Source: an uncultured Chloroflexia bacterium
GTDB taxonomy: Bacteria; Chloroflexota; Limnocylindria; QHBO01
DNA: 64,000 bases
Direction of reading: 5' to 3'
Assembly (NCBI GenBank): GCA_963816215.1
Contig: CAWFKB010000005.1
Span: forward strand, 5,309-69,308
Position numbers and translations under genes: made by a program. How positions within the stretch are numbered: position 1 is the first letter of the stretch; every line of letters begins with the position of its first letter. Below are positions 2,946 to 22,591 of this stretch, one piece after another. Below the pieces are notes generated by a model. It did not search any database and was not told the origin of the DNA. It saw nothing but the letters and a program-made list of their open reading frames with translations.

Positions 2946-3869
2946 ATGCCCTCCGCGCCTCGTGCGCCACGGCGTCAACCCAACGTCCTTGCCCGCGCCA
3001 CGACCCTGGCGGGAAGCGCGCTGCTCGCGGCCGCGGTCCTGGCAGGAGCAGGCGCCGCCCCGGTCACCGGTTGGAACCAGGGCGCAGCCGAGGCGACGCT
3101 GTGGCAGCTCCTGAACGGCGCGCGGGCCAATAACGGCCTCAACGTGCTCATTCAGCACGGCACCCTGTTGTCCATCGCCCGCTGGCGCAGCCAGGACATG
3201 GTCCAGCGCAGCTACTTCAGCCACACGATCCTGGGCACCAGCTATCAGGTCTATCACTGGTATGACCTCAACGGGGTGGCGTACTCGCTGGGTGGCGAGA
3301 ACATCGCCTGGAACAACGGCTACTCCGACGCCGACTCTCCGATTGCCGCCCACAACGGCTTCATGGGCTCCCAGGGCCACCGCGACAACATCCTCCGGCC
3401 CGGCTTTACCCACGGGGCGGTTGGTGCCTATGGCGCCGACAACGTCTCGTTCCTCGGCTCCGTCCGCAGCCCGCGCGTCTACACCGAGCTGTTCCTGACC
3501 TCCCCTGGCGGTGGTGGTGGTGGCGGCGGCGGCGGCGGTGGTGGCGGCGGCGGTGGTGGTGGTGGCGGCGGCGGCGGTGGTGGCGGCGGCGGCGGTTATT
3601 ACACGCCCGCACCCCCTCCTCCCCTTCCGCCTCGGGTCGTCCCGGCCCCGGTCAAGCCCGCCTCGGCCCAGCCCATGAACGGCACGGGCCGCCTGGTCCA
3701 CGCCACGGCTCTGGATCTGCCCAACCGCGCGTGGGCGGGTGCCGACACACGCGGCGCCCCCTCTGCGCCCGCGACCACGGCCAGCCTTCGGGTCGACAGC
3801 GCCCGACCCGCCGATCGCGGCGTGTTCGAGACGCTGCTCGGCTCCCTGATCGGGTTCCTGTTCGGCTGA
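2946..3869 (+). CDS. Secreted CAP/SCP (YkwD-like) domain protein with poly-Gly linker and Pro-rich tail
   Basis: Signal-peptide-like N-terminus (MPSAPRAPRR...AAVLAGAGA). CAP motifs SQDMVQRSYFSHT, GENIAWNNGYS and GSQGHRDNIL. Then 30 consecutive Gly and a PAPPPPLPPRVVPAP tail. Confidence 0.7.
   Translation: MPSAPRAPRRQPNVLARATTLAGSALLAAAVLAGAGAAPVTGWNQGAAEATLWQLLNGARANNGLNVLIQHGTLLSIARWRSQDMVQRSYFSHTILGTSYQVYHWYDLNGVAYSLGGENIAWNNGYSDADSPIAAHNGFMGSQGHRDNILRPGFTHGAVGAYGADNVSFLGSVRSPRVYTELFLTSPGGGGGGGGGGGGGGGGGGGGGGGGGGGGGGYYTPAPPPPLPPRVVPAPVKPASAQPMNGTGRLVHATALDLPNRAWAGADTRGAPSAPATTASLRVDSARPADRGVFETLLGSLIGFLFG
3507..3596 (+). repeat. Perfect (GGY)30 trinucleotide microsatellite encoding 30 consecutive glycines inside the CAP-domain gene
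   Basis: Uninterrupted GGT/GGC codons from 3507 to 3596, seen directly in the sequence. Confidence 0.9.
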
Positions 3870-3912
3870 TCCCCGCGTCCGGGAACTGTCCCCGGCCGTA
3901 TCCTGTCGCCCG

Positions 3913-4659
3913 ATGACCGTCATTCTCGAGGCCCGCGACCTCGTCAAGCGCTATACCGTCGGCGACACCGAGGTCGAAGCCCTGCGGGGCGTGAGCCTCG
4001 CGGTGGAGCGCGGCGAGTTCCTCGCGATCATGGGCGCATCGGGCTCGGGCAAGTCCACCCTCCTCCATCTCCTCGGAGGCCTGGATCGGCCCAGCACCGG
4101 CGAGGTGGTCATCGATGGCGTGGACATCAGCACCCTGAACGACGAGCAGGCCACGCTCACCCGGCGCGACAAGACCGGGTTCGTGTTCCAGTTCTTCAAC
4201 CTCATCCCCCTGCTGAGCGTGCGCGAGAACGTTGCGCTGCCCTTTCTGATCAGTGGCAGCTCGGTGGGCGAGCACACGGAGCGCGTGAACGCGCTGCTCG
4301 AGATGGTTGCCCTGACCGGCAAGGCCGATAACGCCCCCGACCAGCTGTCGGCCGGCGAGCAGCAGCGCGTGGCGCTGGCGCGAGCCCTGGCCACCGAGCC
4401 GGTGCTCCTGCTGGCCGATGAGCCGACCGGCAACCTCGACTACACGACCGGCGGCGAGATCCTCGACCTGTTGTGGCACTCGTGCGTCCAAATGGGGCAG
4501 ACCATCGTGCTCGTCACCCATGAGGCGCGGGCGGCGGCGTACGCGGACCGGGTGCTCGTCGTGCGCGACGGGAAGATCCTGGACGAGATCACGCTCGGCC
4601 GGCGCCCGGACCACGATCCGGGCCAGCTGCTCGCCCGGCTGGCCACGCTGGGGCTGTAG
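3913..4659 (+). CDS. ABC transporter ATP-binding protein, MacB/LolD/FtsE-like
   Basis: Walker [10 protein letters not shown], signature [15 protein letters not shown], Walker [13 protein letters not shown]. Paired with the downstream FtsX-type permease. Confidence 0.85.
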
Positions 4660-7240: not shown

Positions 7241-7675
7241 ATGACCGAGCTGGTGCTGGAGGGGACCCCAGGCCGCGAACTGGTGGGCCGGCTCGCCAAA
7301 GGGACCGATCTCGTGGCCGAGATCGAGCGGATCTGCGCCGAGCGAGGCGTATCCGCCGCCTGGGTCAGCGTCATCGGTGCGGTCAGCCACGCTGCCTACG
7401 CGTACTACCACCAGACCGAACATCGGTATCTCGAGATGGCGTCCGACTCCCATCACGAGATCGTTGGGTTCATCGGCAATGTCAGCATGCGCGACGGCAT
7501 GCCCTTCCTACACGCCCATGGCACGTTCGCCAACGAGGACGGAGCCTGCGTGGGCGGCCACCTCCTGCGCGGGATCACGGTGTTCGCGTGCGAGTTCACG
7601 ATCCGCGAGCTGACCGGCGTCGAGCTGGTCCGGACCTTCGACGAGGAGACCGGCCTGGCCCTGTGGTCGGAATAG
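7241..7675 (+). CDS. PPC domain (DUF296) protein
   Basis: 144 aa with the PCC/DUF296 fold signature (GxVsVIGAVSHAAYAY...HLHAHGTFANEDGACVGGHL). Confidence 0.6.
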   Translation: MTELVLEGTPGRELVGRLAKGTDLVAEIERICAERGVSAAWVSVIGAVSHAAYAYYHQTEHRYLEMASDSHHEIVGFIGNVSMRDGMPFLHAHGTFANEDGACVGGHLLRGITVFACEFTIRELTGVELVRTFDEETGLALWSE

Positions 7676-7807
7676 GGGACCCGATGAACCGAACTCGTCG
7701 GTCGTCAGCCTGATTTCGTACCGAGCCCGAATTTGCCGGTGCGAAAGACCGATGGAATCCTGGCCGGCCGGGCGCCCGAAGCGCCGGCCGGCGTCCGCCA
7801 GACCCTC

Positions 7808-8407
7808 CTAGCCTTCAGCTCCCACCACCGCGGGTGGACCGTCGGTGGGAGGCTGCGACTGCAGGAGCCACACCAGGGTGGTTCCGGTGATCACGCCGGC
7901 GACTGCCGCACCAATGGCGCCGATGACATAGGCCATCGCGGTGGGGCCGCCGATCGCCTCATCCACGGCGCTGATGACGACCCAGCCCACGGCCCAGCCG
8001 AGTGCGCTGGCCAGGACCCACAGCTCTGCCCGCGAGACGTGGCGAACGAGCACCAGCCATTGGGCGAATCCCGACGAAATGCCGATGACGGCTCCGCTCA
8101 AGACCACGCCGACGATCCCGGATTCGGCCTGCACGACGGCATCGGCCGCGAACTTGCCAATCGCAAATCCGACGATGCTCGCGGGAATCCACCACCTCAC
8201 TCCGGTGATTCTTTGTCGCAGGACGAACCACTGTGAAATTCCGATCGAGACACCGATCACCGCGCCATCCGCCGTGAACGATTCCAGGAACGACTTGAAG
8301 GCTTCGCAGATCCCGAACCCCACGAGCCACCCCACCGTGGTTGCCAGGACCCAACCCAGCCCAATTCTCCAGTCGGTCCGTGTGAGTGGTTGCCTGAGTG
8401 CGGTCAT
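7808..8407 (-). CDS. Hypothetical integral membrane protein with internal duplication
   Basis: 199 aa and very hydrophobic. Two related halves (ISQWFVLRQRITGVRWWIPASIVGFAIGKF and FAQWLVLVRHVSRAELWVLASALGWAVGWV). No recognisable family. Confidence 0.5.
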   Translation of the reverse strand: MTALRQPLTRTDWRIGLGWVLATTVGWLVGFGICEAFKSFLESFTADGAVIGVSIGISQWFVLRQRITGVRWWIPASIVGFAIGKFAADAVVQAESGIVGVVLSGAVIGISSGFAQWLVLVRHVSRAELWVLASALGWAVGWVVISAVDEAIGGPTAMAYVIGAIGAAVAGVITGTTLVWLLQSQPPTDGPPAVVGAEG

Positions 8408-8533
8408 GTGTGCCGTCCTTCTCGTTAGTCCGTCGCCATCTCGTGGAGCTCAGGAGGCCCACCGTACTCGGTGGCACTGCGGCCTGACTGCGGCGGGGAC
8501 TCGCCTCCGTCCTTCGATCCGTCGCGGTCGCGC

Positions 8534-8682
8534 GGTAGGATGTCCGCCATTCCGCTCAGTGTGAGCGTGAACGGGCGCCGGTAGCTCAGTGGATAGAGCG
8601 GGTGGCTTCGGACCAGAAACCCCGGAGCGCTGTGGCACGAGCGTCGCTCACCGACCAAATGTGACCTAGTTATCCGCTGTCA
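8534..8682 (+). repeat. tRNA-Arg repeat copy 1: promoter/leader plus truncated tRNA-Arg 5' half (8575..8616) plus a shared non-tRNA arm of about 65 nt
   Basis: GGTAGGATGTCCGCCATTCCGCTCAGTGTGAGCGTGAACGG then GCGCCGGTAGCTCAGTGGATAGAGCGGGTGGCTTCGGACCAG. This matches intact tRNA-Arg (12221..) through the anticodon loop. It then diverges into AAACCCCGGAGCGCTGTGGCACGAGCG..., which recurs in copy 2. Confidence 0.8.
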
Positions 8683-8745
8683 AAGGGTCGCCTAGCCGCG
8701 TCCCACATGGGCGGATGTTGCGCGTTCGGGCCACGAGGTGAGTGT

Positions 8746-9975
8746 CTAGGGCTGGACCTGGCCCACCCAGAGCACGGTCGTGACGGGGTCCGTGCTCTGG
8801 TTCGTGAACAGGGCCACGGTGTCGCCCAGGGCCGCGCCCGTCTCGCCGCCGCCTTGGGTCCGTCCGGACAGCGTCGGCCCAGCGGTCCAGGTCATGCCAT
8901 CGCGGGAGGTCCAGGTCAGCGTGCCGGTGCCGTCGTCGCCGATGGCGAGGAGGCCGTTGTCCAAGGTGACCAGGCCGTGGGCCACGTCGCCACCGCCAGG
9001 GAGGGCGATGGCGGTCCAGGCCAGTCCATCGGTTGAGGTGAAGGCCTGGGGCACGGCACCCGTGATGCCGACGGCCACGATGGTGCCATCGGGCGCGACT
9101 GCAACTGAGCGCATGGAGGCGCCGCTCAGTGCCGATAAGGCTGCGGGCGACTCGACCCAGCTTTGGCCCGTGGGTGAAACGAACGAGACCGCGCTCGTTC
9201 CGGGGCCTCGATCGCCGACGGCCACGAACTGGCTACCCGTCCACACCAGGTCGAAGACGTTGAACCCAGAGTTCGGGAACGGCACGCCGGTGGGGGTCGT
9301 CTCCACCCAGCTGGTGCTCGGGGTCCACCGGTAGGTCCCACCGCTGGGGTCAGGGTAGCCGTGGTTGGCCACGAGCAGCTCCTGGTCGCTCGCCACGAGG
9401 TCCACCACTCCGTATCCGTCGGTGAAGAACGGGTTCGCCGACACGATGAACTCCCAGCTCCGGGCGTCGGTCGTCCGCCAGCCCACCGGCCGCCGGTAGT
9501 CGGTGGGACCGAGGAGGGTGCCGAGCGAAAAGAGGGTATCCCCGAAGCGGGCCAGCGGGCCCATCATCGCGGCGGCCACCCACCAGTTGTTCAAGTAGTC
9601 GTCGTAGAACGGGTCGACCCCCAGCTGGGCGGCGGTTGGCGGGGTGACAGGGTGCGTTTGCCACGTGGTTCCGTCTGACGATGTCCACGCTGCGGGACCC
9701 GCTCCGATCCCGCCAACCGCGACGAACTGGCCCTCGTCAACCGTTACCGCCCTCACCACCCCGCCCGCCGGCTGATCGGTCCAGGTGATGTCTAACTGAC
9801 CGGCCGATGCGGACGCGCTGGAGGGCGCCACGCTCGGTGTCCCGCTGGGGGGCGCCACGCTCGCAGACTGACTCGGAGAGGGGCTCGACAAGGGCTGGCA
9901 TCCGCTGACCGCAATCATCAGCGCCGCCCCAATCACCACCCCCGAAAACCGACGGGCCGTCGCAGCCGGGTGCAT
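8746..9975 (-). CDS. Lipoprotein with BNR/Asp-box repeats (beta-propeller; Ycf48/sialidase-like repeat class)
   Basis: Signal peptide plus lipobox (MHPAATARRFSGVVIGAALMIAVSGC). Repeated SxDxGxTW Asp-box motifs (TSSDGTTWQT, TTDARSWEF, STDGLAWTA, TSRDGMTWTA). The start is chosen at M27 of the track ORF (top coordinate 9975) so that the 5' extension into the tRNA-derived repeat is excluded. Confidence 0.65.
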   Translation of the reverse strand: MHPAATARRFSGVVIGAALMIAVSGCQPLSSPSPSQSASVAPPSGTPSVAPSSASASAGQLDITWTDQPAGGVVRAVTVDEGQFVAVGGIGAGPAAWTSSDGTTWQTHPVTPPTAAQLGVDPFYDDYLNNWWVAAAMMGPLARFGDTLFSLGTLLGPTDYRRPVGWRTTDARSWEFIVSANPFFTDGYGVVDLVASDQELLVANHGYPDPSGGTYRWTPSTSWVETTPTGVPFPNSGFNVFDLVWTGSQFVAVGDRGPGTSAVSFVSPTGQSWVESPAALSALSGASMRSVAVAPDGTIVAVGITGAVPQAFTSTDGLAWTAIALPGGGDVAHGLVTLDNGLLAIGDDGTGTLTWTSRDGMTWTAGPTLSGRTQGGGETGAALGDTVALFTNQSTDPVTTVLWVGQVQP

Positions 9976-10061
9976 CACGGCCTCCACCATACCCCCCACC
10001 CCTGCGGCCGCACTACGGTGGTCCTGCCTCTCTTCGGGTCGATGCTCACACACCGAGAGCG

Positions 10062-10210
10062 GGTAGGATGTCCACCATTCCGCTCAGTCTGAGCGTGAAT
10101 CAGGCGCCGGCAGCTCAGTGGATAGAGCGGGTGGCTTCGGACCAGAAACCCCGAGCGCTGTGGCACAAGCTTGGCTCGCCGAGCGAAATGGGCCGAGTTA
10201 TCGGCTCTCT
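10062..10210 (+). repeat. tRNA-Arg repeat copy 2: promoter/leader plus truncated tRNA-Arg 5' half (10104..10145) plus a shared arm
   Basis: GGTAGGATGTCCACCATTCCGCTCAGTCTGAGCGTGAATCAG then GCGCCGGCAGCTCAGTGGATAGAGCGGGTGGCTTCGGACCAG, followed by AAACCCCGAGCGCTGTGGCACAAGC... The break point and downstream arm match copy 1. There is one substitution at tRNA position 8 (T to C). Confidence 0.8.
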
Positions 10211-10256
10211 GGGCGTCAACGCGACCAGGACCGACAGGCGCTTTTTCACGGAGTAT

Positions 10257-11507
10257 TCACGAACCAGGCGGCCGCGGCTGCCAATCACCCCAGCCGGCTC
10301 CGGGGACGACGAGCTGAACGTCGGAGCCATCGGCGTCGACGCTCCAAAGACCGGTCCCATCCACGCCGCCATCGGTTGCAAAGAGAATCCGGTCCCCGTC
10401 GGGCGAGAATCGGATCGGCCTGATACTCCGCTTCGCCGCAGCCGTCCTGACGATCCCGCTGGCCACGTCGAGCACGCGAAGCTCAGCGGCGCGCTCTACC
10501 GAGGAGCCATTGACATCGAGGGGGGTCCACGTGAAGGCGACGCGATCGCCCGAGGGTGACCAGATGAGGTTATGGAGGAACACGTTATCGACGGTCCCGT
10601 CCTCGAGGGAGTCCGGATAGGGCACGACCCGGAGCTCGGTGCCATCGGCGTCGGCGATCACGAGGGAATTCGTCATGCTCCTTTCCGAACGGTCTTCGGT
10701 GAAGGTGGTGTAGGCGACCCGTGTGCCGTCAGACGAATACGACGAGACCCAGAGGCCTCGGGGGTCGCTTGCCGGCAGGCGCCGAGGCGTGCCACCGTCG
10801 ATCGGCACCTCGCAATCCCCGGCCACGAGCGAGCGGCCGTCCAACGACCACCTCACGTCGTTATCGCCAGACCCCTGGCAGGCGGACGGCGCCGAAAGCA
10901 GTGCTTGGCGCACCCCGTCGAGCCCGTAGACAATGATCGGCTGGTCATAGACATCGACCCAGGTGGCGATACGCGTCGAGTCCGGTGACCATCCGACGAG
11001 CCAGCCCTCGCCAGGGAGCGACGCGACCAGGTGGCCCGCCGCGTCGTGCACCTGGACGATCGCGGGACAGGGATCGTCCACGTCGCCATGCCATCCGTCC
11101 GATCGATATGCGAGGTATTTCCCGTCGGGCGACCACATCGATCCCTCGACTCCGAGGTTCCCGCATTCCGCATCGTCGTCTGGAGGAGCACCGTCTGCTA
11201 TCCGCACTGGGTTCGCCCCGTCCGCATCGGCGACGTAGATGTCGCCAACCAGGCTGTAGGCCAGACGGGGCGCCGAGCTGTCCGGAAGCACAGGCCGGTC
11301 GACGATGCCTGACAAGACGAGCGCGGCACCGCTAACGGCGAGGGCCAGCAGCAGCGCCGCCACCAGAAGCAGCGCGGGTCGCGACGAGCGTCCGGATCGA
11401 CGCATCTCCTGCTGCAGGAGCGCGTAGAGCTGGTCGTCGAAGCCTGGATCGACGTCGGTCGGTCCAGCGTGGGCCGCCAGTCGCTCGAAGATTCGTTCGT
11501 CGTTCAT
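10257..11507 (-). CDS. Anti-sigma factor with single TM helix and C-terminal TolB-like beta-propeller domain
   Basis: N-terminal cytoplasmic region, then a transmembrane segment (RPALLLVAALLLALAVSGAALVL), then repeated SPDG/WSPDG propeller blades (MWSPDGKYLAYRSDG, GWSPDSTRIA, RFSPDGDRILFATDG). It overlaps the upstream ECF sigma gene by 4 nt. Confidence 0.6.
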   Translation of the reverse strand: MNDERIFERLAAHAGPTDVDPGFDDQLYALLQQEMRRSGRSSRPALLLVAALLLALAVSGAALVLSGIVDRPVLPDSSAPRLAYSLVGDIYVADADGANPVRIADGAPPDDDAECGNLGVEGSMWSPDGKYLAYRSDGWHGDVDDPCPAIVQVHDAAGHLVASLPGEGWLVGWSPDSTRIATWVDVYDQPIIVYGLDGVRQALLSAPSACQGSGDNDVRWSLDGRSLVAGDCEVPIDGGTPRRLPASDPRGLWVSSYSSDGTRVAYTTFTEDRSERSMTNSLVIADADGTELRVVPYPDSLEDGTVDNVFLHNLIWSPSGDRVAFTWTPLDVNGSSVERAAELRVLDVASGIVRTAAAKRSIRPIRFSPDGDRILFATDGGVDGTGLWSVDADGSDVQLVVPGAGWGDWQPRPPGS

Positions 11508-12070
11508 CGGTTTGCCTCCGGGAAAGCCTGCCGGAATGCGTCGCGGCCCCGAGCCAGCAGGGAGGCGGTGGCCGCTTCGGTCTTGCCAATTGAGTTCGCT
11601 ACCTCACGGACGCTGAGCTGATCCATGTAGTGCAGGATCAGGACGGCGCGCTGCAAGGCTGGCAGTCCGGCTAAGGCGTCATCGATGTCGTCGGGCGTGG
11701 TTGGCGGCGACGACTCCGCCCGAGCCGCATCGCCGAGCTCGCGGGCACTGAGTGCTGCCAGGCGGCGCGTGTCGCGTTCGGCGCGACGGAAGTGGTCGAC
11801 GAGCTTGTGGCGGGCGATGCCGATGACCCAGGTCGTGGCATTGGCCTGTCCGCGAAATCGGCTGTAATGGCGCACCGCTTCGACAAAGGCCTGCTGGGTC
11901 AGCTCCTCCGCCAAATCGGGGTCTCGTCCACAGCGATGGAACAGATACCCGTATACGGTTGGCAGGCTGCGGTCATACCAGGCACGAAAGGCCTGCTCGT
12001 CAGCGACGACGACCGGGTCCCCGTGAATCGCGGTCGGCGGTCGCACGCTGTCGCTGGCTTCGGATGGCAT
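11504..12070 (-). CDS. ECF (group IV) RNA polymerase sigma factor
   Basis: Sigma-70 region 2 (AFRAWYDRSLPTVYGYLFHRCGRDPDLAEELTQQAFVEAVRHYSRF) and region 4 (LPALQRAVLILHYMDQLSVREVANSIGKTEAATASLLARGR). Translationally coupled to the anti-sigma gene. Confidence 0.8.
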   Translation of the reverse strand: MPSEASDSVRPPTAIHGDPVVVADEQAFRAWYDRSLPTVYGYLFHRCGRDPDLAEELTQQAFVEAVRHYSRFRGQANATTWVIGIARHKLVDHFRRAERDTRRLAALSARELGDAARAESSPPTTPDDIDDALAGLPALQRAVLILHYMDQLSVREVANSIGKTEAATASLLARGRDAFRQAFPEANR

Positions 12071-12179
12071 CTACAGGTTAGTCGCTTGGGACCAGCGAAA
12101 TCGATCGGTGCGGATAGCCGCGATCCTGGGCACGAGCGCCGCAGTCTGGGACCAAGGACCCAGGCGAAATCGATAGCGG

Positions 12180-12220
12180 GGTAGGATGTCCACCATTCCG
12201 CTCCGTTTGAGCGTGAACGG
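12180..12220 (+). promoter_or_regulatory. Conserved leader/promoter of tRNA-Arg (TAGGAT -10-like hexamer); third copy of the repeat's left part
   Basis: GGTAGGATGTCCACCATTCCGCTCCGTTTGAGCGTGAACGG is conserved in all three copies immediately 5' of the tRNA start. TAGGAT fits an actinobacterial TANNNT -10 element. Confidence 0.4.
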
Positions 12221-12296
12221 GCGCCGGTAGCTCAGTGGATAGAGCGGGTGGCTTCGGACCACCAGGCCGCGGGTTCGAATCCTGCCCGGCGCGCCA
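12221..12296 (+). tRNA. tRNA-Arg (anticodon TCG), intact, encoded CCA
   Basis: Acceptor GCGCCGG/CCGGCGC, D arm TAGCTCAGTGGATAGAGC, anticodon stem GGTGG/CCACC, loop CTTCGGA, T arm GCGGG-TTCGAAT-CCTGC, discriminator G, CCA. Confidence 0.9.
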
Positions 12297-12952
12297 TCTC
12301 ACGAATGCACCACTTATCCACATTTGGCGTGCGAAAAACCTGTGCGCCCCATTTGGCCCCTGCTATATTCGGCGCCTGCCCATCCCGGTGGCTTCCAAGT
12401 TGTTGGGACGGGCGGAATGGAGGCCCAAACCTGGCGGTAACACGTTGGCGGAGGGCTTCTGCCGGGCGCTGGTAGCGTAGGAAGCGGAATTAAGCACCCG
12501 CTCCACCGCGCGGCTGGCCCACCACCTCTGCCGGATCGGATCCGCGGAGAGCCGAAAGGCTCCACCAGGCATCCGGTCGGGATGACCACAGGGATGGAGG
12601 TCAAGTGCGCGGGGGTAACAGCCGGGAACCGGCTCGCATCACTCTCGGGTGATGTCAGCAAACCTGGTTGGGCTGGCCTACGGCTCTGGTTCGGCGGCGG
12701 GCGCGCCGTCGAGCGGCTCTTCAAGTCAGGAGTCGCCAAAGCAGTTCGGTACGGAACCCGTGGAGGCAGCTGGTCCCGCTTGGATCGGCCTACGACGCGG
12801 AGGCTCCGAATCGGACGCGGCGTGCGGGCGTCAGTTCGTTCGGGTCAAACCGAGCCGACGGGCGGCCGGTTAGGGGTCTTGGAACGCTTCGCAAGGAGCG
12901 GACCGGGACCCCTGCGTCGTACCTGGGGCGGTGCGGGTCGGGGGATTCGTGC

Positions 12953-15013
12953 TCAGTCGAGGTGGTAGGGCACGTCGGCCACGATCGTGTTGCGGCGTCC
13001 GAAGAGGCGGAGTTTCAGACGCAGGCTGGACTGGTTGTGGAGCAGGTTCTCCCACCAGTGGCGCGGCACGATCTCCGACAGGACGACGACCACCGGTCGT
13101 GACGGATCGAGGGCCTGCAGCGCGTCCATGTAGCGCAGCAGCGGCCCCATCAGGGCGCGATAGGGTGATTCGACCACGACCAGCTCCATGCCGTTTTCGA
13201 GCCGTGCCCATTGCTCTCGGAGGAGCTCCGCCGTCGCCGCGTCGTTTGTCACGTGGACGGCACTTGCCTGCGGGCTGAGCGTTTGCGCGAAGGCAAGCGC
13301 ACCCAGCGCCGGGCGGTCGAGGCGGGCGATGGGAACAATGACGATCGGCTTCGGCGGTGCTGCGGCGACGCGCGGCTCGGAGGGAGGGGCCGGCGTGAGA
13401 GCCGCCTCGACCCGACGATAGTGGCGTCGGATGCCGAGCATCAGGGCCATCAGGAGCGGAATCAGGAGGACCACGATCCATGCTCCGGACAAGAATTTCG
13501 TGCTGACCACGACGACGGCGATGACGGCCGTCGTGGCTGCCCCAACGCCGTTGATGATCAGGCCGCTGCGCCACCTGGGCTCGCGCCGCCGCCACCAGCG
13601 AACGACCATCCCTGACTGGGACAGCGTGAACGCCAGGAAGACGCCGAGCGTATACAGGGGAATCAAGGCCGTGACGCTGGCGTCGAAGACGACCAGCAGG
13701 ACGCAGGCCATGCCGGCCAGGGCGGCAATGCCGGTCGTGAACGCCAGCCGGTCGCCGCGGAAGCCAAACTGGCGGGGCATGAATCCGTCGCGAGCCAGGA
13801 AGGACGACAGGCGCGGGAAGTCCGCGAAGGCGGTGTTGGCGGCCAGGGTGAGGACCAGGGCCGTCGCGATCTGGACGACGACGAGATACCACCCGTCACC
13901 GACAACCTGGCGCGTAATCAGGGACAAGACCGTTTGCTGTTCGGTGGGATCGGGAACGACCTGGATGACCGCCGCCAGGTAGCTGATGCCCAGGAACAGG
14001 GCGCCGAACAGGATCGCCGCCCATGTCAGCGTCGTTCGCGCATTGCGCCATTCCGGGGGCTTGAAGGCCGGGACGCCATCAGACACCGCCTCGACCCCGG
14101 TCAGCGCGGCCGATCCGGAGCTGAACGCGCGGAGGACCAGGAAGACCGACAGCACGGTGGCGGTGCCTGCCTCTGCCTCCGTCCAGCTCGGTGGCGGGAC
14201 GAAGGTCCCCAGGTTGCCGCTGGCCTGGAGGAACAGTCCCCACACGATGACCCCGAAGATCGCCACCAGGTACAGGTAGGTGGGGGCCATGAAGATGGTG
14301 CCGGACTCCCGAATCCCGCGCAGGTTTCCGATGGTCAGCAGCGCCACGATGATCAGCCCGATCAGCACCCGTTCGGGGTACAGGCTCGGAACGAGCGAGG
14401 TGATGGCGGCCACCCCGGCAGAGACCGATACGGCCACCGTCAACGTGTAGTCGATGAGGAGCGCGCCGCCCGCCAGGAGCCCCGCTCCGGTTCCCAGGTT
14501 GTCGCTGGCCACGATGTAGCTGCTGGCACCGTTCGGGTAGGCGCGAATCGTCTGCCTATAGCTGACCGCCACGATCACGAGCACGGCTACGATGGCGACA
14601 GTGATCGGTAGGGTCAGGGCGATGGCGCCCACGCCGGCCAGGATCAGGATCCGCATGATCTCTTCGGTGGCGTAGGCGCTCGAGCTGATGTTGTCGGAGC
14701 TGAAGACGGCCAGTGCCTTGATCTTGGTCAGCCGCTCGTGCTCCTCGTGCTCCGAGGAAATCGGCCGTCCGAAGAGGAAGTTGCGCCCGCCCCGGAACCA
14801 TCGACCGAAGGTGGTGGTCGAATCAATGGTCCGCTCCGACGCGATCAGCTGGCCCTCGTCGCCGTGCTCGAACTCGGATTCGAAGGGCCGCACGATGCGG
14901 ACGTAGGCGTCCCCCGGGCGCGCGCCGACGCTCCGCTCGCGGACTTCGAGCATGGGGTCGACACGGTTGCCGCCCGGCTCGCCGGGCGGCTCAGGTGGTG
15001 GGCGGTTCGTCAT
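12953..15013 (-). CDS. APC-family amino acid permease with C-terminal cytoplasmic domain
   Basis: 686 aa with 12 or more hydrophobic helices. It resembles actinobacterial amino-acid transporters that carry a C-terminal extension of about 200 aa. Confidence 0.75.
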   Translation of the reverse strand: MTNRPPPEPPGEPGGNRVDPMLEVRERSVGARPGDAYVRIVRPFESEFEHGDEGQLIASERTIDSTTTFGRWFRGGRNFLFGRPISSEHEEHERLTKIKALAVFSSDNISSSAYATEEIMRILILAGVGAIALTLPITVAIVAVLVIVAVSYRQTIRAYPNGASSYIVASDNLGTGAGLLAGGALLIDYTLTVAVSVSAGVAAITSLVPSLYPERVLIGLIIVALLTIGNLRGIRESGTIFMAPTYLYLVAIFGVIVWGLFLQASGNLGTFVPPPSWTEAEAGTATVLSVFLVLRAFSSGSAALTGVEAVSDGVPAFKPPEWRNARTTLTWAAILFGALFLGISYLAAVIQVVPDPTEQQTVLSLITRQVVGDGWYLVVVQIATALVLTLAANTAFADFPRLSSFLARDGFMPRQFGFRGDRLAFTTGIAALAGMACVLLVVFDASVTALIPLYTLGVFLAFTLSQSGMVVRWWRRREPRWRSGLIINGVGAATTAVIAVVVVSTKFLSGAWIVVLLIPLLMALMLGIRRHYRRVEAALTPAPPSEPRVAAAPPKPIVIVPIARLDRPALGALAFAQTLSPQASAVHVTNDAATAELLREQWARLENGMELVVVESPYRALMGPLLRYMDALQALDPSRPVVVVLSEIVPRHWWENLLHNQSSLRLKLRLFGRRNTIVADVPYHLD

Positions 15014-19915: not shown

Positions 19916-22591
19916 TCATGGGGCGGCTGGGTCATTTCGATCGGGATCGATGCCCAACGCCATCTGCGCCCCGGTGACCTCCTCGGCGGTCGCCTCCCCG
20001 GTCTGCAGGAGCCCAAACAGGGCGGCGTAGGCGATGTACTCGGCGCTGACCTCGAAGTAGGAGCGCAATGACTCGCGGGTGTCAGATCGGCCGAAGCCAT
20101 CGGTTCCCAGGACGATGTACGGGCGCTGGACCCAGCGGGCGATGAGGTCCGGCACCGCCCTGACATAGTCGGTGGCGGCCACGACCGGTCCCGGGGCGTC
20201 GGCCAGGGTCCGGACCACGTACGGCAGGTGGCGGTCCTCTTCGGGGTGCAGCCGGTTATGACGCTCTGCCCGCAGGCCGTCGGCCCGCAGCTGCTGGAAC
20301 GAGGTCGCGCTCCACACGTCGGCGGCCACGTTGAACTGCTCGGCGAGCAGGTCCGCCGCGCGCAGGGCCTGGTGCAGGATCGATCCCGAGGCCAGGATCT
20401 GCACCGGGCGACCCCCGCCGGTCGCCGGCTTGCATCGGTACAGCCCCTTCAGGATGCCCTTGGCCACGCCGTCGGGCAGGGCCGGTTGGTGCCAATTCTC
20501 GTTGTACAGGGTGATGTAGTAGAAGATGTCCTCGCCCTTCTGCCACATCCGCTTGATGCCGTCGCGGACGATGACTCCCAGCTCGTAGGCGAAGGCCGGG
20601 TCGTAGGCCATCAGGTTGGGGATGGCGTTGGCGTACAGGTGGCTCTGGCCGTCGTCGTGCTGGAGACCCTCCCCGGTGAGCGTGGTGCGGCCCGCCGTCG
20701 CCCCCATCAGGAACCCCCGGCCGCGGGAGTCCCCGAAGGCCCAGGCCTGGTCGCCGGTCCGCTGCAGGCCGAACATCGAGTAGAAGACGTAGAACGGGAT
20801 CATGGGCTGGCCGTGGACCGCGTAGGCGGTGCCCGCCGCCGTGAACGACGCCATGGAACCCGCCTCGGTGATGCCCTCCTCCAGGATCTGCCCATCCGTC
20901 GCCTCGCGGTACGACAGGAGGAGCTCCCGGTCGACCGATGCGTAGCGCTGCCCGAGCGGGTTGTAGATCCCGATCTCCTTGAACAGGGGGTCCATGCCGA
21001 AGGTCCGCGCCTCGTCCGGGATGATCGGGACAACCCGGCGGCCCAGCTCCGGGTCGCGGACGAGGTTTCGGAGCAGCCGCCCGAAGGCCATGGTCGTGGA
21101 GGCGGCCAGGTCGGACCCGGAGAACACGTCCGCGAACACCGCCTCGCCCGGCTCCGGGAGCGGCTCGGTCGACGGCTTCCGGCGCGGGATCAGTCCGCCG
21201 AGCACCTTCCGCCGCTCGAGCATGTATCGGATCTCGGGGCTGTCGGCGCCGGGGTGGTAGTACGGCGCATCGGCCAGCTTGTCGTCGGGGATTGGGAGCT
21301 CGAGGCGGTCCCGGAAGATGCGCAGCTCGTCCACGGTCAGCTTCTTGGCCTGGTGGGTGACGTTCCGGGCTTCGATCCCCGGGCCCAGCGTCCAGCCCTT
21401 GACCGTCTTGGCCAGGATCACCACCGGCGCGCCCTCGTGCTGGGTGGCGTAGGTGTAGGCGGCGAAGAGCTTGCGATAGTCGTGGCCGCCTCGCCGGAGC
21501 CCGGCCAGCTCGGCATCGGTTCTGTCGGCGACCATCGCCGCCAGGCGCGGATCAGGGCCGAAGAAATGTTCACGCACATACGCGCCATCGGCAGTGGATA
21601 GGGTCTGGTAGTCCCCGTCCAGGGTCTCGGTCATCTTGTTGAGCAGCACGCCATCGGTGTCGTGCTCGAGGAGGGCGTCCCACTCGCGGCCCCAGATGAC
21701 CTTGATCACGTGCCAGCCCGCGCCGCGGAACACCGACTCCAGCTCCTGGATGATCTTTCCGTTGCCGCGGACCGGGCCGTCGAGCCGCTGCAGGTTGCAG
21801 TTGACGACAAAGATCAAATTGTCGAGGCCCTCCCGGGCGGCGAGGCTCAACCCGGCCAGGGATTCGGGCTCGTCCATCTCGCCGTCACCCACGAAGCTCC
21901 AAACCCGTGATTGGGACGTATCGGCGATGCCGCGGGCCGCCAGGTAGCGATTGAACCGGGCCTGGTAGATGGCGCTCAGCGGACCGAGGCCCATGGAGAC
22001 GGTGGGGAACTGCCAGAACTCGGGCATCGTCCGCGGGTGCGGGTAGGAGGGCAGACCGCCAGGGGCCAGCGCCTCCCGACGGAAGTGGTCGAGCTGATCG
22101 GCCGACAGGCGGCCCTCGAGGAAGGCGCGGGCATAGATGCCGGGCGCGGCATGACCCTGGAAGTAGACGAGGTCGCCGGGACCGTCGTCCCAGCCACGGA
22201 AGAAGTGGTTGAAGCCCACCTCGTACAGGCTGGCGGCAGACGCATACGTGGAGAGATGACCACCGATGCCTTCGAACCGCGTGTTGGCGCGCAGGACCAT
22301 GGCCAACGCGTTCCACCGGATCATGCGACGGATGCGATGCTCCATCACCTCGTCCCCGGGGAAGGCGGGCTCCTGCTCGGGCGAGATCGTGTTGACGTAG
22401 CGAGTCTGGGTCAGTGGCGGAATGCCGACCTGGAGCTGGCGGGCGCGCTTCAGGAGGCGAAACAGGATGAAGCGCGCCCGTTCGGGCCCCGCCTGTTCGA
22501 CCACCGCGTCAAGTGAATCGAGCCATTCCTCGGTCTCGGTGGGGTCGACATCCGGGAGCTGCTGCTTGAACTGGTCGAAGACGTCGTGCAC
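19916..22591 (-). CDS. aceE: Pyruvate dehydrogenase E1 component, homodimeric type
   Basis: 891 aa. N-terminal MHDVFDQFKQQLPDVDPTETEEWLDSLDAVVE and thiamine-diphosphate binding regions typical of AceE. Confidence 0.9.
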   Translation of the reverse strand: MHDVFDQFKQQLPDVDPTETEEWLDSLDAVVEQAGPERARFILFRLLKRARQLQVGIPPLTQTRYVNTISPEQEPAFPGDEVMEHRIRRMIRWNALAMVLRANTRFEGIGGHLSTYASAASLYEVGFNHFFRGWDDGPGDLVYFQGHAAPGIYARAFLEGRLSADQLDHFRREALAPGGLPSYPHPRTMPEFWQFPTVSMGLGPLSAIYQARFNRYLAARGIADTSQSRVWSFVGDGEMDEPESLAGLSLAAREGLDNLIFVVNCNLQRLDGPVRGNGKIIQELESVFRGAGWHVIKVIWGREWDALLEHDTDGVLLNKMTETLDGDYQTLSTADGAYVREHFFGPDPRLAAMVADRTDAELAGLRRGGHDYRKLFAAYTYATQHEGAPVVILAKTVKGWTLGPGIEARNVTHQAKKLTVDELRIFRDRLELPIPDDKLADAPYYHPGADSPEIRYMLERRKVLGGLIPRRKPSTEPLPEPGEAVFADVFSGSDLAASTTMAFGRLLRNLVRDPELGRRVVPIIPDEARTFGMDPLFKEIGIYNPLGQRYASVDRELLLSYREATDGQILEEGITEAGSMASFTAAGTAYAVHGQPMIPFYVFYSMFGLQRTGDQAWAFGDSRGRGFLMGATAGRTTLTGEGLQHDDGQSHLYANAIPNLMAYDPAFAYELGVIVRDGIKRMWQKGEDIFYYITLYNENWHQPALPDGVAKGILKGLYRCKPATGGGRPVQILASGSILHQALRAADLLAEQFNVAADVWSATSFQQLRADGLRAERHNRLHPEEDRHLPYVVRTLADAPGPVVAATDYVRAVPDLIARWVQRPYIVLGTDGFGRSDTRESLRSYFEVSAEYIAYAALFGLLQTGEATAEEVTGAQMALGIDPDRNDPAAP

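Follow-up and report, generated by a model that had tools for sequence, protein, structure and literature searches.

The window analyzed here, a single stretch of DNA 64 kb in length from a soil Chloroflexota bacterium, holds an intact tRNA-Arg(TCG) gene preceded by two truncated copies of its own leader and 5′ half, with small groups of genes between them. This raises the question of how the 5′ half of a tRNA gene comes to be repeated together with its upstream region. The evidence below indicates that the locus is, very probably, a tandem array of att junctions arising from repeated site-specific integration at the anticodon loop of this tRNA gene, with reversed polarity.

Repeat anatomy of the tRNA-Arg(TCG) locus

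The features of the locus are listed in order, with P arm denoting the conserved right end of the element and P′ arm its conserved left end.

7241–7675 (+): PCC-domain gene (Pfam PCC, E = 1e-29), the left backbone neighbor of tRNA-Arg in relatives
7676–8466 (−): probable oldest islet, with the gene for a 199-residue multi-pass membrane protein at 7808–8407
8467–8574 (+): copy 1 P arm, with leader at 8534–8573 (nhmmer profile from other genomes, E = 1.9e-9; repeat family D3)
Within 8534–8573 (+): copy 1 leader motifs, a TAGGAT box and the palindrome TTCCGCTC-N5-GAGCGTGAA
8575–8615 (+): copy 1 of tRNA-Arg(TCG) nt 1–41, cut in the 3′ strand of the anticodon stem (41/41 identical to 12221–12261)
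8616–8681 (+): islet 1 P′ arm, with motifs GCGCTGTGGCA and TTATCCGCTGTC (profile; aligned with 22 other junctions)
8746–9975 (−): islet 1 cargo, a 409-residue lipoprotein with SxDGxxW (BNR/Asp-box-like) repeats (lipobox AVSGC and repeats seen in the translation)
9989–10103 (+): copy 2 P arm, with leader at 10062–10102 (profile, E = 1.6e-11; repeat family D3)
10104–10144 (+): copy 2 of tRNA-Arg nt 1–41, with a single mismatch (T9C) and the same break nucleotide as copy 1
10145–10210 (+): islet 2 P′ arm (profile; repeat family D5 with the first arm)
10257–11507 (−): islet 2 cargo, a 416-residue membrane-anchored PD40 β-propeller protein (Pfam PD40, E = 6.7e-12)
11504–12070 (−): islet 2 cargo, an ECF sigma factor, divergent from the tRNA (Pfam Sigma70_r2, Sigma70_r4_2, ECF)
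12146–12220 (+): copy 3 P arm, with leader at 12180–12219, now upstream of the intact tRNA (profile, E = 6.8e-12; identical in copy 3 of contig L100)
12221–12296 (+): intact tRNA-Arg(TCG), nt 1–41 probably element-derived (ARAGORN; Rfam)
12953–15013 (−): amino-acid permease gene (Pfam AA_permease_2), the conserved right backbone neighbor

The sole ARAGORN call at the locus is the intact tRNA-Arg(tcg) at 12221–12296 (Rfam score 68.8 bits). Its leader, of approximately 40 nt, and its nucleotides 1–41 are present as three direct copies, at 8534, 10062, and 12180, as the preliminary description of this DNA had stated. A repeat finder placed the leaders at 8533–8571, 10061–10099, and 12179–12217 (92–100% identical) and the starts of the tRNA 5′ parts at 8574, 10103, and 12220. 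In the alignment, both truncated copies match the tRNA as far as …GGACCA (nt 41; positions 8615 and 10144), diverge at nt 42, and continue into a common arm of approximately 66 nt (8616–8681 and 10145–10210; 77% identical over 64 nt), which bears out the shared junction reported earlier. Chance is excluded for both elements of the repeat: a 24-nt leader pattern gave three matches and the arm pattern two, against 0.00 expected in each case.

An arm profile built from other genomes only matches 8616–8681 (E = 4.6e-16) and 10146–10210 (E = 6.7e-16), with no further significant match across the 64 kb. The arm is thus not a dispersed intergenic repeat within the window, a possibility that would have refuted the integration or cassette interpretation. 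The arm fragments previously described at 12090–12175 gave no match to this profile; from 12146 onwards, that segment is the conserved region upstream of the leader (envelope 12146–12220).

Neither truncated copy is called as a tRNA by ARAGORN, and in Rfam searches copy 1 scores 22.4 bits (threshold 29) and copy 2 has no match. Three copies of a promoter region and 5′ half in one orientation might suggest a former cluster of three tRNA-Arg genes in which two decayed, each losing its 3′ half separately. However, independent decay is at odds with an identical break nucleotide followed by a homologous arm in both copies, and no relative carries several complete tRNA-Arg genes at the locus, let alone three. 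A tRNA cluster with pseudogenes was rejected on these grounds, its probability being negligible.

A further reading is that the truncated copies are functional, giving tRNA-half or tRNA-like small RNAs or antisense transcripts into the convergent 3′ ends of the cargo genes, and that RNA function accounts for their conservation. Each truncated copy keeps the full leader with its TAGGAT box, the arm is conserved over approximately 70 nt among distant genomes, and a cmscan alignment of copy 1 shows that the arm stretch immediately past the break is able to pair with the 5′ strand of the acceptor. Predicted folding, however, is no better than that of shuffled sequence (leader, half, and arm together, z = +1.14 and +0.12; arms, z = −0.41 and −1.56), and no structured tRNA-half RNA is supported. 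No terminator-like site was found at the leaders or arms, and a sigma-70 consensus scan found no promoter at the three leaders or at the arms; the "intact promoter" of the preliminary description is thus reduced to a putative one, suggested by the conserved TAGGAT box. Arm conservation ends abruptly at GCTGTC and consists of directly repeated, DNA-motif-like blocks that also occur upstream of the tRNA. As RNA function would also leave unexplained the empty sites and the integrase link described below, we consider it quite improbable.

Backbone and cargo genes

The PCC gene is syntenic in eight relatives (L001, L002, L003, L011, L041, L085, L100, and L101), and homology between the window and relatives stops exactly at its stop codon. 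On the right, the permease gene is conserved, and loci L001–L079 were retrieved through it. Between these backbone genes lie two islets (8616–10103 and 10145–12220), each limited by a P′ arm on one side and a P arm with core on the other.

The gene content agrees with that first described. The islet 1 lipoprotein has no match in Pfam searches; 17 homologs were found, six with a precomputed DUF6242_C match that is marked faint where the context was looked up. In islet 2, the stop of the ECF sigma gene and the start of the PD40 gene share 4 nt, and a hydrophobic segment is visible in the PD40 translation; this protein is a putative anti-sigma factor. The ECF sigma gene occupies the position held by the integrase gene in L011, and ECF genes are found at the same position in L031, L092, L096, and L100.

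The segment 7676–8466, whose right limit is the copy 1 upstream region, is probably the oldest islet, its left att junction having been lost. Its membrane-protein gene has no homolog in 79 related loci and was found only in the closely related L100. Because the arm profile detected no arm remnant on its left side, we infer its islet status from context.

No integrase or integrase fragment was found in the window islets (7676–12220) or in the whole 64 kb (Pfam; tblastn with the L011 integrase, best E = 0.84). This and the lack of a consensus promoter count against repeated site-specific integration as the origin of the array.

Empty sites and array variants in relatives

The preliminary description had proposed a search for empty sites, and these were found in two Candidatus Limnocylindria relatives, L002 and L041, with PCC as the left neighbor of the tRNA. 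In both, PCC, native leader, and tRNA are contiguous: the PCC stop codon is followed by approximately 25 nt containing a TACAAT box and then by the intact tRNA. In L011, L085, L088, and L097, attL joins the native leader with its TACAAT box to the 5′ half and arm, and attR joins an element-type leader to the intact tRNA. In the window, all three copies carry the element-type leader. Because no attL with a native leader survives there, the first insertion is reconstructed from the relatives.

The L100 contig, 91–98% identical to the window at the nucleotide level, shows the same array with one additional islet. This 3.26-kb block, inserted exactly between tRNA nt 41 and 42, is the sole difference between the two, with the exchange point lying within the 41-nt tRNA part. 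Copy 3 of L100 runs into a new arm, an islet of ECF sigma, anti-sigma, and Kelch genes, a different leader, and then the intact tRNA; the window is thus an empty site for the fourth islet of L100. The additional islet has no integrase; a unit lacking its own recombinase was therefore precisely gained or lost at least once. A less tractable arrangement is that of L101, where a homolog of the BNR-like gene is flanked by PCC and a native-type leader and no att remnant is present; a simple integration model does not predict this, and it counts against that model.

The junction is widespread. Of 17 metagenome contigs with the junction 20-mer, 15 have the tRNA 5′ part and a homologous arm, and in all 27 truncated junctions read identity ends at tRNA nt 38–41, just past the anticodon loop CTTCGGA. 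Seven islets delimited on both sides (L044, L055, L080, L085, L087, L092, and L093) are 1.4–1.7 kb in size and carry one gene each, and that of L088 measures 3.3 kb; none of the eight contains an integrase. The same architecture is present on a different tRNA-Arg(TCG) sequence variant in L044, L055, and L105.

These comparisons bear on nested segmental duplication, one of the explanations first offered, in which the tRNA 5′ half, arm, and gene were duplicated in tandem without any mobile element and the genes then diverged. The direct repeats, their regular 1.5–2.1 kb period, and a junction common to both truncated copies, as if copied, fit such an origin. The cargo, however, is unrelated (a BNR-like lipoprotein against an ECF sigma factor and PD40 protein), the arms and leaders of neighboring units differ, and the additional unit of L100 has yet another arm and leader. 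The same junction and arm also occur in many genomes beside different genes and native leaders, and empty sites and integrase-bearing versions exist. Duplication is highly improbable on this evidence.

Ordinary homologous recombination, for instance after DNA uptake, could also add and remove integrase-less islets, with a site-specific step only for the founding event; the conserved leader and 5′ half, and the tRNA 3′ half with the permease gene, would provide portable homology. Repeats of 82–150 nt, 92–100% identical, do flank each unit, neither the window nor the polymorphic L100 islet has an integrase, and the difference between L100 and the window formally fits deletion between direct repeats. 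With differing leaders and arms, however, the flanks of the L100 islet have in common only the 41-nt tRNA part and approximately 12 nt of leader, a poor RecA substrate. Nor would such exchange explain why the break falls at tRNA nt 38–41 in every truncated junction rather than being scattered, and integrases of one family are abundant in the same clade. We regard this explanation as unlikely.

Integrase-bearing relatives

Site-specific integration is linked to the locus by L011, a single 2.6-kb element with a XerD-like tyrosine integrase. Its order is PCC, native leader, tRNA nt 1–41, arm, Kelch lipoprotein, 314-residue integrase, element-type leader, and intact tRNA. The integrase matches Pfam Phage_integrase (83.7 bits) together with a SAM-like domain, the phrog_1 integrase family, and the XerD structure 1a0p (E = 2.7e-21). 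The elements of L097, L104, and L105 are larger (7.5–10 kb) and encode a capsid protein or terminase; in each, this integrase again lies next to the same leader and tRNA.

At least 880 homologs of this integrase were found. The six contexts examined (L011, L097, L098, L099, L104, and L105) all have the integrase gene divergent from an element-type leader and tRNA-Arg or its 5′ part beside it, although in L099 the contig ends after the first 8 nt. Where the contig is long enough, a truncated 5′ half is found at a distance of 8.0, 7.5, or 9.8 kb. Integrase fragments adjoin the tRNA in L032, L044, and L051. Because the integrase is Xer-like and without an arm-binding domain, the role of the conserved arm motifs is left unexplained, which counts against the integration reading.

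Taken with the empty sites of L002 and L041 and the L100 polymorphism, the elements of L011, L097, L104, and L105 support successive insertions by elements whose attP brings its own promoter and tRNA 5′ half, the first of the explanations proposed from the window itself. Mobilization of integrase-less cassettes in trans, another of these, may hold as well and is partly favored by the L100 polymorphism.

A model for the array

In the proposed mechanism, attP would comprise a right end (the P arm, with a promoter-like box, the leader, and tRNA nt 1–38/41), the crossover region, and a left end of approximately 70 nt (the P′ arm). From the sequence, crossover is predicted to take place in the anticodon loop CTTCGGA (12252–12258). 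Integration would split the host tRNA gene, leaving the host 5′ part, fused to the P′ arm of the element, upstream as a truncated copy, while the leader and 5′ half of the element would be fused to the host 3′ half, restoring a functional tRNA gene. Each newcomer would land beside the tRNA 3′ half and shift older units leftwards. The suggested order of arrival, oldest first, is the membrane-protein unit (left junction deleted), the BNR-like lipoprotein unit, and the ECF sigma/anti-sigma unit.

The likely recombinase is the XerD-like tyrosine integrase of approximately 315 residues encoded by autonomous relatives (2.6–10 kb, some with capsid and terminase genes). The units in the window would be non-autonomous and CIME-like, having either decayed or been mobilized in trans. 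With the native promoter lost in the window, the host tRNA-Arg(TCG) would now be transcribed from element-derived DNA, assuming the putative promoter to be active.

Comparison with known integration systems

The locus has much in common with classical islands and prophages at tRNA anticodon loops (Williams 2002; tandem arrays and symmetry hypothesis, PMC7192596): both involve a tyrosine recombinase and use a tRNA gene for attB, the identity block stops at the anticodon stem-loop, a functional tRNA is restored with the integrase gene beside it, and reuse of the restored site gives tandem arrays. As in tRNA integrative elements generally, part of the target tRNA gene is directly repeated beside one intact copy and empty sites exist; an own integrase is found in the relatives L011, L097, L104, and L105 but not in the window. 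In classical islands, however, the identity block covers the tRNA from its loop through its 3′ end; here it is mirrored and extends from tRNA nt 1 to the loop. The repeat comprises nt 1–41 with the upstream leader, the truncated copies lie upstream of the tRNA, attP contains the tRNA 5′ part with its upstream signals, and the displaced host 5′ fragment keeps its native upstream sequence (L011, L085, L088, and L097). Because of this mirrored polarity, the element must also bring a promoter and a processable leader.

The preliminary description was right about the polarity; its reversal of the usual 3′ signature is nonetheless rare rather than undescribed. Integration at the 5′ side of tRNA genes is documented (Zhao & Williams 2002, as cited in PMC6563490) and termed "considerably less frequent" than 3′-side integration in that citing account. 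In the cases as summarized there, the 5′ portion of the tRNA gene likewise comes from the element rather than the host, and a displaced 5′ fragment is left upstream of the restored gene. Compared with that summary, the present family is set apart by its at least 880 related integrases, with reversed polarity at one tRNA species in all six contexts examined, by a carried leader of approximately 40–110 nt, and by arrays of 1.4–2.1 kb integrase-less units.

CIMEs formed by site-specific accretion (ICESt1 type; definition in PMC5704250) are also att-flanked units without integration or transfer genes, stacked with relatives at one target gene. Both window islets are flanked by att sites, and the 3.26-kb integrase-less islet of L100 is precisely absent from the window, a difference that may reflect an integrase acting in trans, an integrase that was lost afterwards, or homologous recombination. 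CIMEs, however, are defined with respect to conjugative or mobilizable elements at gene 3′ ends (PMC5704250), whereas here the autonomous relatives are small and phage-like, polarity is reversed, most units carry a single gene, and mobilization is putative. In Dehalococcoides, another Chloroflexota lineage, many tandem islands likewise occupy one essential small-RNA gene, ssrA, bounded by its direct repeats; 15 of these are without an integration module, and cis-mobilization was proposed for them (PMC3146451).

In outline, the array also resembles integron cassette arrays, with short, mostly single-gene units that lack a recombinase, each bounded by a recombination site, that gather at one platform with the newest nearest the insertion point. 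In contrast to integrons, there is no IntI-type integrase, no attI/Pc platform, and no attC-like folded single-strand site; the site here is the tRNA anticodon loop, autonomous members of the family carry the integrase, and the cargo genes are oriented away from the platform. An integron cassette array was rejected since no tyrosine recombinase adjoins the array and the arms do not fold in an attC-like manner. The dusA-specific integrases target a protein-coding gene and belong to a different family, and their abstract does not mention cassette-like arrays (PMC4482086). Precedents exist for integration at the 5′ side of tRNA genes, for tandem accretion, and for integrase-less islands, each taken singly. 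The novelty lies in the combination of the three, in units of single-gene size, in the promoter that they carry, and in the host group.

Implications

Island finders seek 3′ tRNA fragments, an integrase in each unit, and sizes of at least 2 kb; the units described here fall below the 2-kb, integrase-containing limits of Islander and TIGER (PMC7192596). Mirror-image, integrase-less units of 1.4–2.1 kb match none of these three criteria; as a result, this source of differences between strains of an abundant soil lineage is probably missing from annotations. By exchanging the promoter and 5′ half of a tRNA gene for its own, an element would also take control of the expression of that gene, and no native promoter is left at the window locus. 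Integration further leaves tRNA halves whose putative promoter points into neighboring genes.

It is tempting to speculate, though the idea is tentative and rather doubtful at present, that the 5′ side of tRNA-Arg(TCG) in Limnocylindria is a platform for cassette accretion. Integrase-less units of one or two genes, each with a complete attP-like site of P arm, tRNA 5′ half, and P′ arm, would be actively inserted, excised, and reshuffled in trans by the Xer-like integrase of small phage-like relatives, diversifying sets of secreted β-propeller proteins and ECF sigma/anti-sigma pairs, and each arrival would take over transcription of the tRNA. If true, a tRNA gene and a phage integrase would here support a logic like that of integrons. 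If the units do move in trans, cassette arrays would have arisen by a second route independent of integrons, and the system would offer a compact integrase with an att pair through which a promoter is carried over the junction.

Anatomy of the array

Three direct repeats of a leader and nucleotides 1–41 of tRNA-Arg(TCG) were located in the window by a repeat finder and three-way alignment. The third runs on into an intact gene (ARAGORN; Rfam, 68.8 bits), while copies 1 and 2 continue into a common non-tRNA arm.

Features of the array in the window
8533–8571, 10061–10099, 12179–12217: leader of about 40 nt, GGTAGGATGTCC.CCATTCCGCTC.GT.TGAGCGTGAA
8547–8569, 10075–10097, 12193–12215: leader palindrome, TTCCGCTC-N5-GAGCGTGAA
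8575–8615, 10104–10144, 12221–12261: tRNA nucleotides 1–41, directly after each leader
8616–8681, 10145–10210: common arm of the two upstream copies
8746–9975 (−): lipoprotein gene with SxDGxxW repeats (translation)
10257–11507 (−): PD40-repeat protein gene (Pfam)
11504–12070 (−): ECF sigma gene (Pfam)
12221–12296: intact tRNA-Arg(tcg)

Both upstream copies switch from tRNA to arm after ...GGACCA, at nucleotide 41 on the 3′ strand of the anticodon stem. Pattern searches return three leader and two arm matches, and none in shuffled sequence. ARAGORN, repeat finder, alignment and pattern searches together bear out the three copies, shared breakpoint and shared arm of the preliminary description. 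As it had also anticipated, neither truncated copy is called as a tRNA (no ARAGORN call; 22.4 bits against an Rfam threshold of 29). The cargo it had named is recovered: Pfam identifies the ECF sigma factor and the propeller-type PD40 protein, and the lipoprotein, which has no Pfam match, is recognized by its repeats. Exact-protein look-up of the window genes returned no record for the membrane protein encoded left of copy 1, and the ECF sigma factor on a single 2.1-kb contig.

Consensus scans found no sigma-70 promoter at the leaders, and no promoter or terminator at leaders or arms. Rfam returned only tRNA, with no other RNA family at copies or arms. The ViennaRNA z scores (+1.14, +0.12, −0.41, and −1.56) indicate no excess structure at either, and the idea of a structured RNA there was rejected. 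In the cmscan alignment of copy 1 the start of the arm pairs with the acceptor strand, as in a T-armless tRNA-like fold; judged by eye rather than by computed covariation, this pairing requires a bulge and does not change alongside the acceptor-stem variant GCGCCCG.

Backbone and empty sites

A scan with the flanking permease (12953–15013) retrieved 79 loci, labeled mostly as Candidatus Limnocylindria, Chloroflexota or Chloroflexia MAGs. The backbone conserved in the synteny analysis runs ABC transporter, FtsX, PCC-domain gene, tRNA-Arg(TCG), and permease. In two of these relatives, L002 and L041, only about 25 nt, with a TACAAT box, lie between the PCC stop (...LALW*) and the intact tRNA; these are empty sites with the native leader.

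The tRNA and permease are separated by 14–19 nt in L001, L002, and L041, and by about 650 nt in the window, where 12297–12952 between the tRNA 3′ end and the permease stop may be an insertion on the tRNA 3′ side. It contains a 141-aa ORF (12314–12739, −) that has no Pfam match and a homolog only in L100, a close relative of the window.

An integrative element with the same junctions

The locus L011 reads PCC, native leader, tRNA nucleotides 1–41, an arm homologous to that of the window, a Kelch lipoprotein gene (−), an integrase gene (−), an element-type leader (TTTTACGCTCTATTTGAGCGTGAA), and the intact tRNA. The 314-aa tyrosine recombinase matches Pfam Phage_integrase (83.7 bits) with a SAM-like N-domain and phrog_1 integrase, and its closest solved structure is E. 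coli XerD. Layout and recombinase together make L011 a 2.6-kb integrative element whose attP comprises leader, tRNA 5′ half, and arm. This is the structure proposed from the sequence beforehand, with insertion by elements carrying their own tRNA promoter and 5′ half in attP.

At least 880 homologs of this integrase were found at E ≤ 1e-20, almost all of about 315 aa, and the contexts of five were inspected in addition to L011.

Integrase contexts, with identity to the L011 integrase
L097, 82%: integrase divergent from an element-type leader and intact tRNA-Arg; truncated 5′ half 8.0 kb off; major head and scaffold genes
L098, 73%: contig breaks off within the tRNA 5′ part, beside the integrase
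L099, 66%: only the first 8 nt of the tRNA lie beside the integrase before the contig ends
L104, 64%: arranged as L097; truncated 5′ half 7.5 kb off; TerL, HNH, and HTH genes
L105, 55%: arranged as L097; truncated 5′ half 9.8 kb off

On these contexts the family is judged to be tied to the tRNA-Arg(TCG) site. N-terminal integrase fragments adjoin the tRNA in three further loci (L032, L044, and L051), which shows in-place decay of integrase genes. Although arm motifs are conserved, the integrase has no arm-binding domain.

Phage-type genes occur in L097:4323–12273 (major head protein, scaffold) and L104:9001–16428 (large terminase, HNH), with a weak TerL nuclease match in L105:9001–18703, in elements of only 7.5–10 kb, which are possibly tiny prophages of Limnocylindria or phage satellites. 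Beside the family integrase of L098 (1377–5434) lie genes for a Replic_Relax protein, a protein with a Mu-type transposase C-terminal domain, and an IstB-like ATPase, placing L011-type integrases also on plasmid-like or transposon-bearing elements.

All three window copies carry the element-type leader, from which it follows that even the leftmost junction of the array joins two elements. The stretch 7676–8466 would then be an older unit whose attL has been deleted. Homology of the window to its relatives stops exactly at the PCC stop codon, and the 199-aa membrane protein gene has a homolog in L100 alone among the loci compared.

Junction, arm, and leader motifs

The architecture is also found on another tRNA-Arg(TCG) sequence variant, whose anticodon stem differs (L044, L055, and L105). 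In every variant tRNA identity ends at nucleotides 38–41, just after the loop CTTCGGA, mirroring the anticodon-loop sublocation of classical integrases (Williams 2002, as relayed by PMC1635311). The crossover is predicted to fall within this loop. When 23 distinct arms are aligned, a module of about 70 nt emerges, GAAACCCCC.AGCGCTGTGGCA.GAGCGTGG...GA.CGAAA...GTT(T/A)TCCGCTGTC, beyond which conservation stops. The P arm, upstream of the tRNA at the element's right end, contains a −10-like box and the palindrome, at −27 to −5. Its half-site recurs in the arms as the TTxTCCGCT motif, and integrase-bearing elements have an extra copy upstream. The palindrome is a candidate protein-binding site. 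Motifs of the att region include TTCCGCT half-sites and GCGCTGTGGC. At the second junction of contig L092 (arm after oriented position 3027), the arm motif TTATCCGCTCT runs on as at least four tandem CCGCTCT units to the contig end, a microsatellite-like expansion of the conserved half-site.

Profiles built without window and L100 sequences match exactly five places in the 64-kb window, the two arms and the three P arms. A common intergenic repeat, the reading of the arm that would have spoken against integration, is thereby ruled out within the window. The arm fragments earlier proposed at 12090–12175 did not hold up: the arm profile has no significant match there, and short similarities, at 12090–12145 and likewise beside the PCC stop (~7700–7800), are seen by eye only.

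Small units and a recent gain or loss

A junction 20-mer matched 17 metagenome contigs and no viral contig. Fifteen of the 17 are true instances, with a native or element-type leader and a homologous arm; the others (L083 and L095) match by chance, in unrelated DNA. Islets with both boundaries defined measure 1.4–1.7 kb in seven contigs (L044, L055, L080, L085, L087, L092, and L093) and 3.3 kb in L088. Most hold a single gene, directed away from the tRNA except in L080. None of the eight contains a full integrase gene, L044 keeping an N-terminal fragment. Cargo was identified by inspecting translations and tblastn matches.

Cargo of the small units
L085, L087, L093: Kelch-repeat lipoproteins
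L080: PD40-type protein
L055: adenosine-deaminase-like protein, by appearance
L088: 1058-aa putative regulator
L092, L096: ECF sigma genes, left of the first junction

L100 (ERZ25039457), reached via a homolog of the BNR-like protein, is 91–98% identical to the window in nucleotide sequence on both sides, with units identical in kind and order. At its third copy, the leader of copy 3 in the window and tRNA nucleotides 1–41 are followed by a new arm (AGACGGCCCATGCGCTGTGGCACC...AGTTTTCCGCTGTCC), a 3.26-kb block (ECF sigma, PD40 anti-sigma, and Kelch fragment), a different leader, and the intact tRNA. The window is thus the precise empty site for this unit, the exchange point lying within the 41-nt tRNA segment, and the unit adjoins the tRNA 3′ half, as the integration model predicts. 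Searches for integrase remnants in both sequences (tblastn, up to E = 10) gave chance-level matches only. A unit without an integrase and precisely absent from the window implies at least one exact gain or loss of a recombinase-less unit between sequences differing by about 2–8% in their flanks. An integrase acting in trans could have produced the difference, as could insertion followed by loss of the integrase, or RecA-dependent exchange across the 41 nt. Sequence alone does not separate the three, and active movement of integrase-less units in trans is regarded as a tentative proposal, on balance doubtful.

Other possible insertions

In L101 (reverse-complement coordinates 3270–4630) the PCC stop is followed by a 56% identical homolog of the BNR-like lipoprotein, then by a native-type TACAAT leader and intact tRNA. 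There is no truncated tRNA half, arm, or att remnant, and the simple integration model does not account for this. At L001:12137–13482, a 1.3-kb insert between the PCC stop and native tRNA leader encodes a 218-aa membrane protein and a 124-aa lipoprotein. A direct repeat of 16 nt from the PCC 3′ end (CCTGGCCCTCTGGTGA) borders this insert, which looks like a different, canonical-polarity insertion targeting that end. In L058, from another Limnocylindria genome, a second copy of the tRNA-Arg(TCG) 3′ part, with two mismatches, lies 8.6 kb downstream of the intact gene (13243–13272 and 21916–21992), which suggests a conventional 3′-polarity island at the same tRNA species. At L018:9762–9853, just upstream of a permease paralog, ARAGORN calls a "tRNA-???" whose anticodon has four bases (ctct).

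Comparison with known systems

Two defining features of the canonical tRNA island, its own integrase and 3′ polarity, fail at the window locus. Nor is the locus an integron, having no IntI, attI, or attC-like folding. Integration into the 5′-distal part of tRNA genes is documented, and described as "considerably less frequent" than 3′ integration in the part of PMC6563490 that cites Zhao & Williams 2002 and archaeal cases. Accretion of elements in tandem is an established concept, as are CIMEs, att-flanked units without an integrase (PMC5704250); they have been proposed for the ssrA islands of a further Chloroflexota lineage, Dehalococcoides (PMC3146451). PMC7192596 treats tRNA genes that carry tandem arrays, with a symmetry argument for anticodon stem-loops, and its tools require at least 2 kb and one integrase per unit. 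The window locus works like these 5′-side integration, CIME/accretion, and tRNA tandem-array systems, and it is very probable that, in line with the first option of the preliminary description, site-specific integration of reversed polarity created the array.
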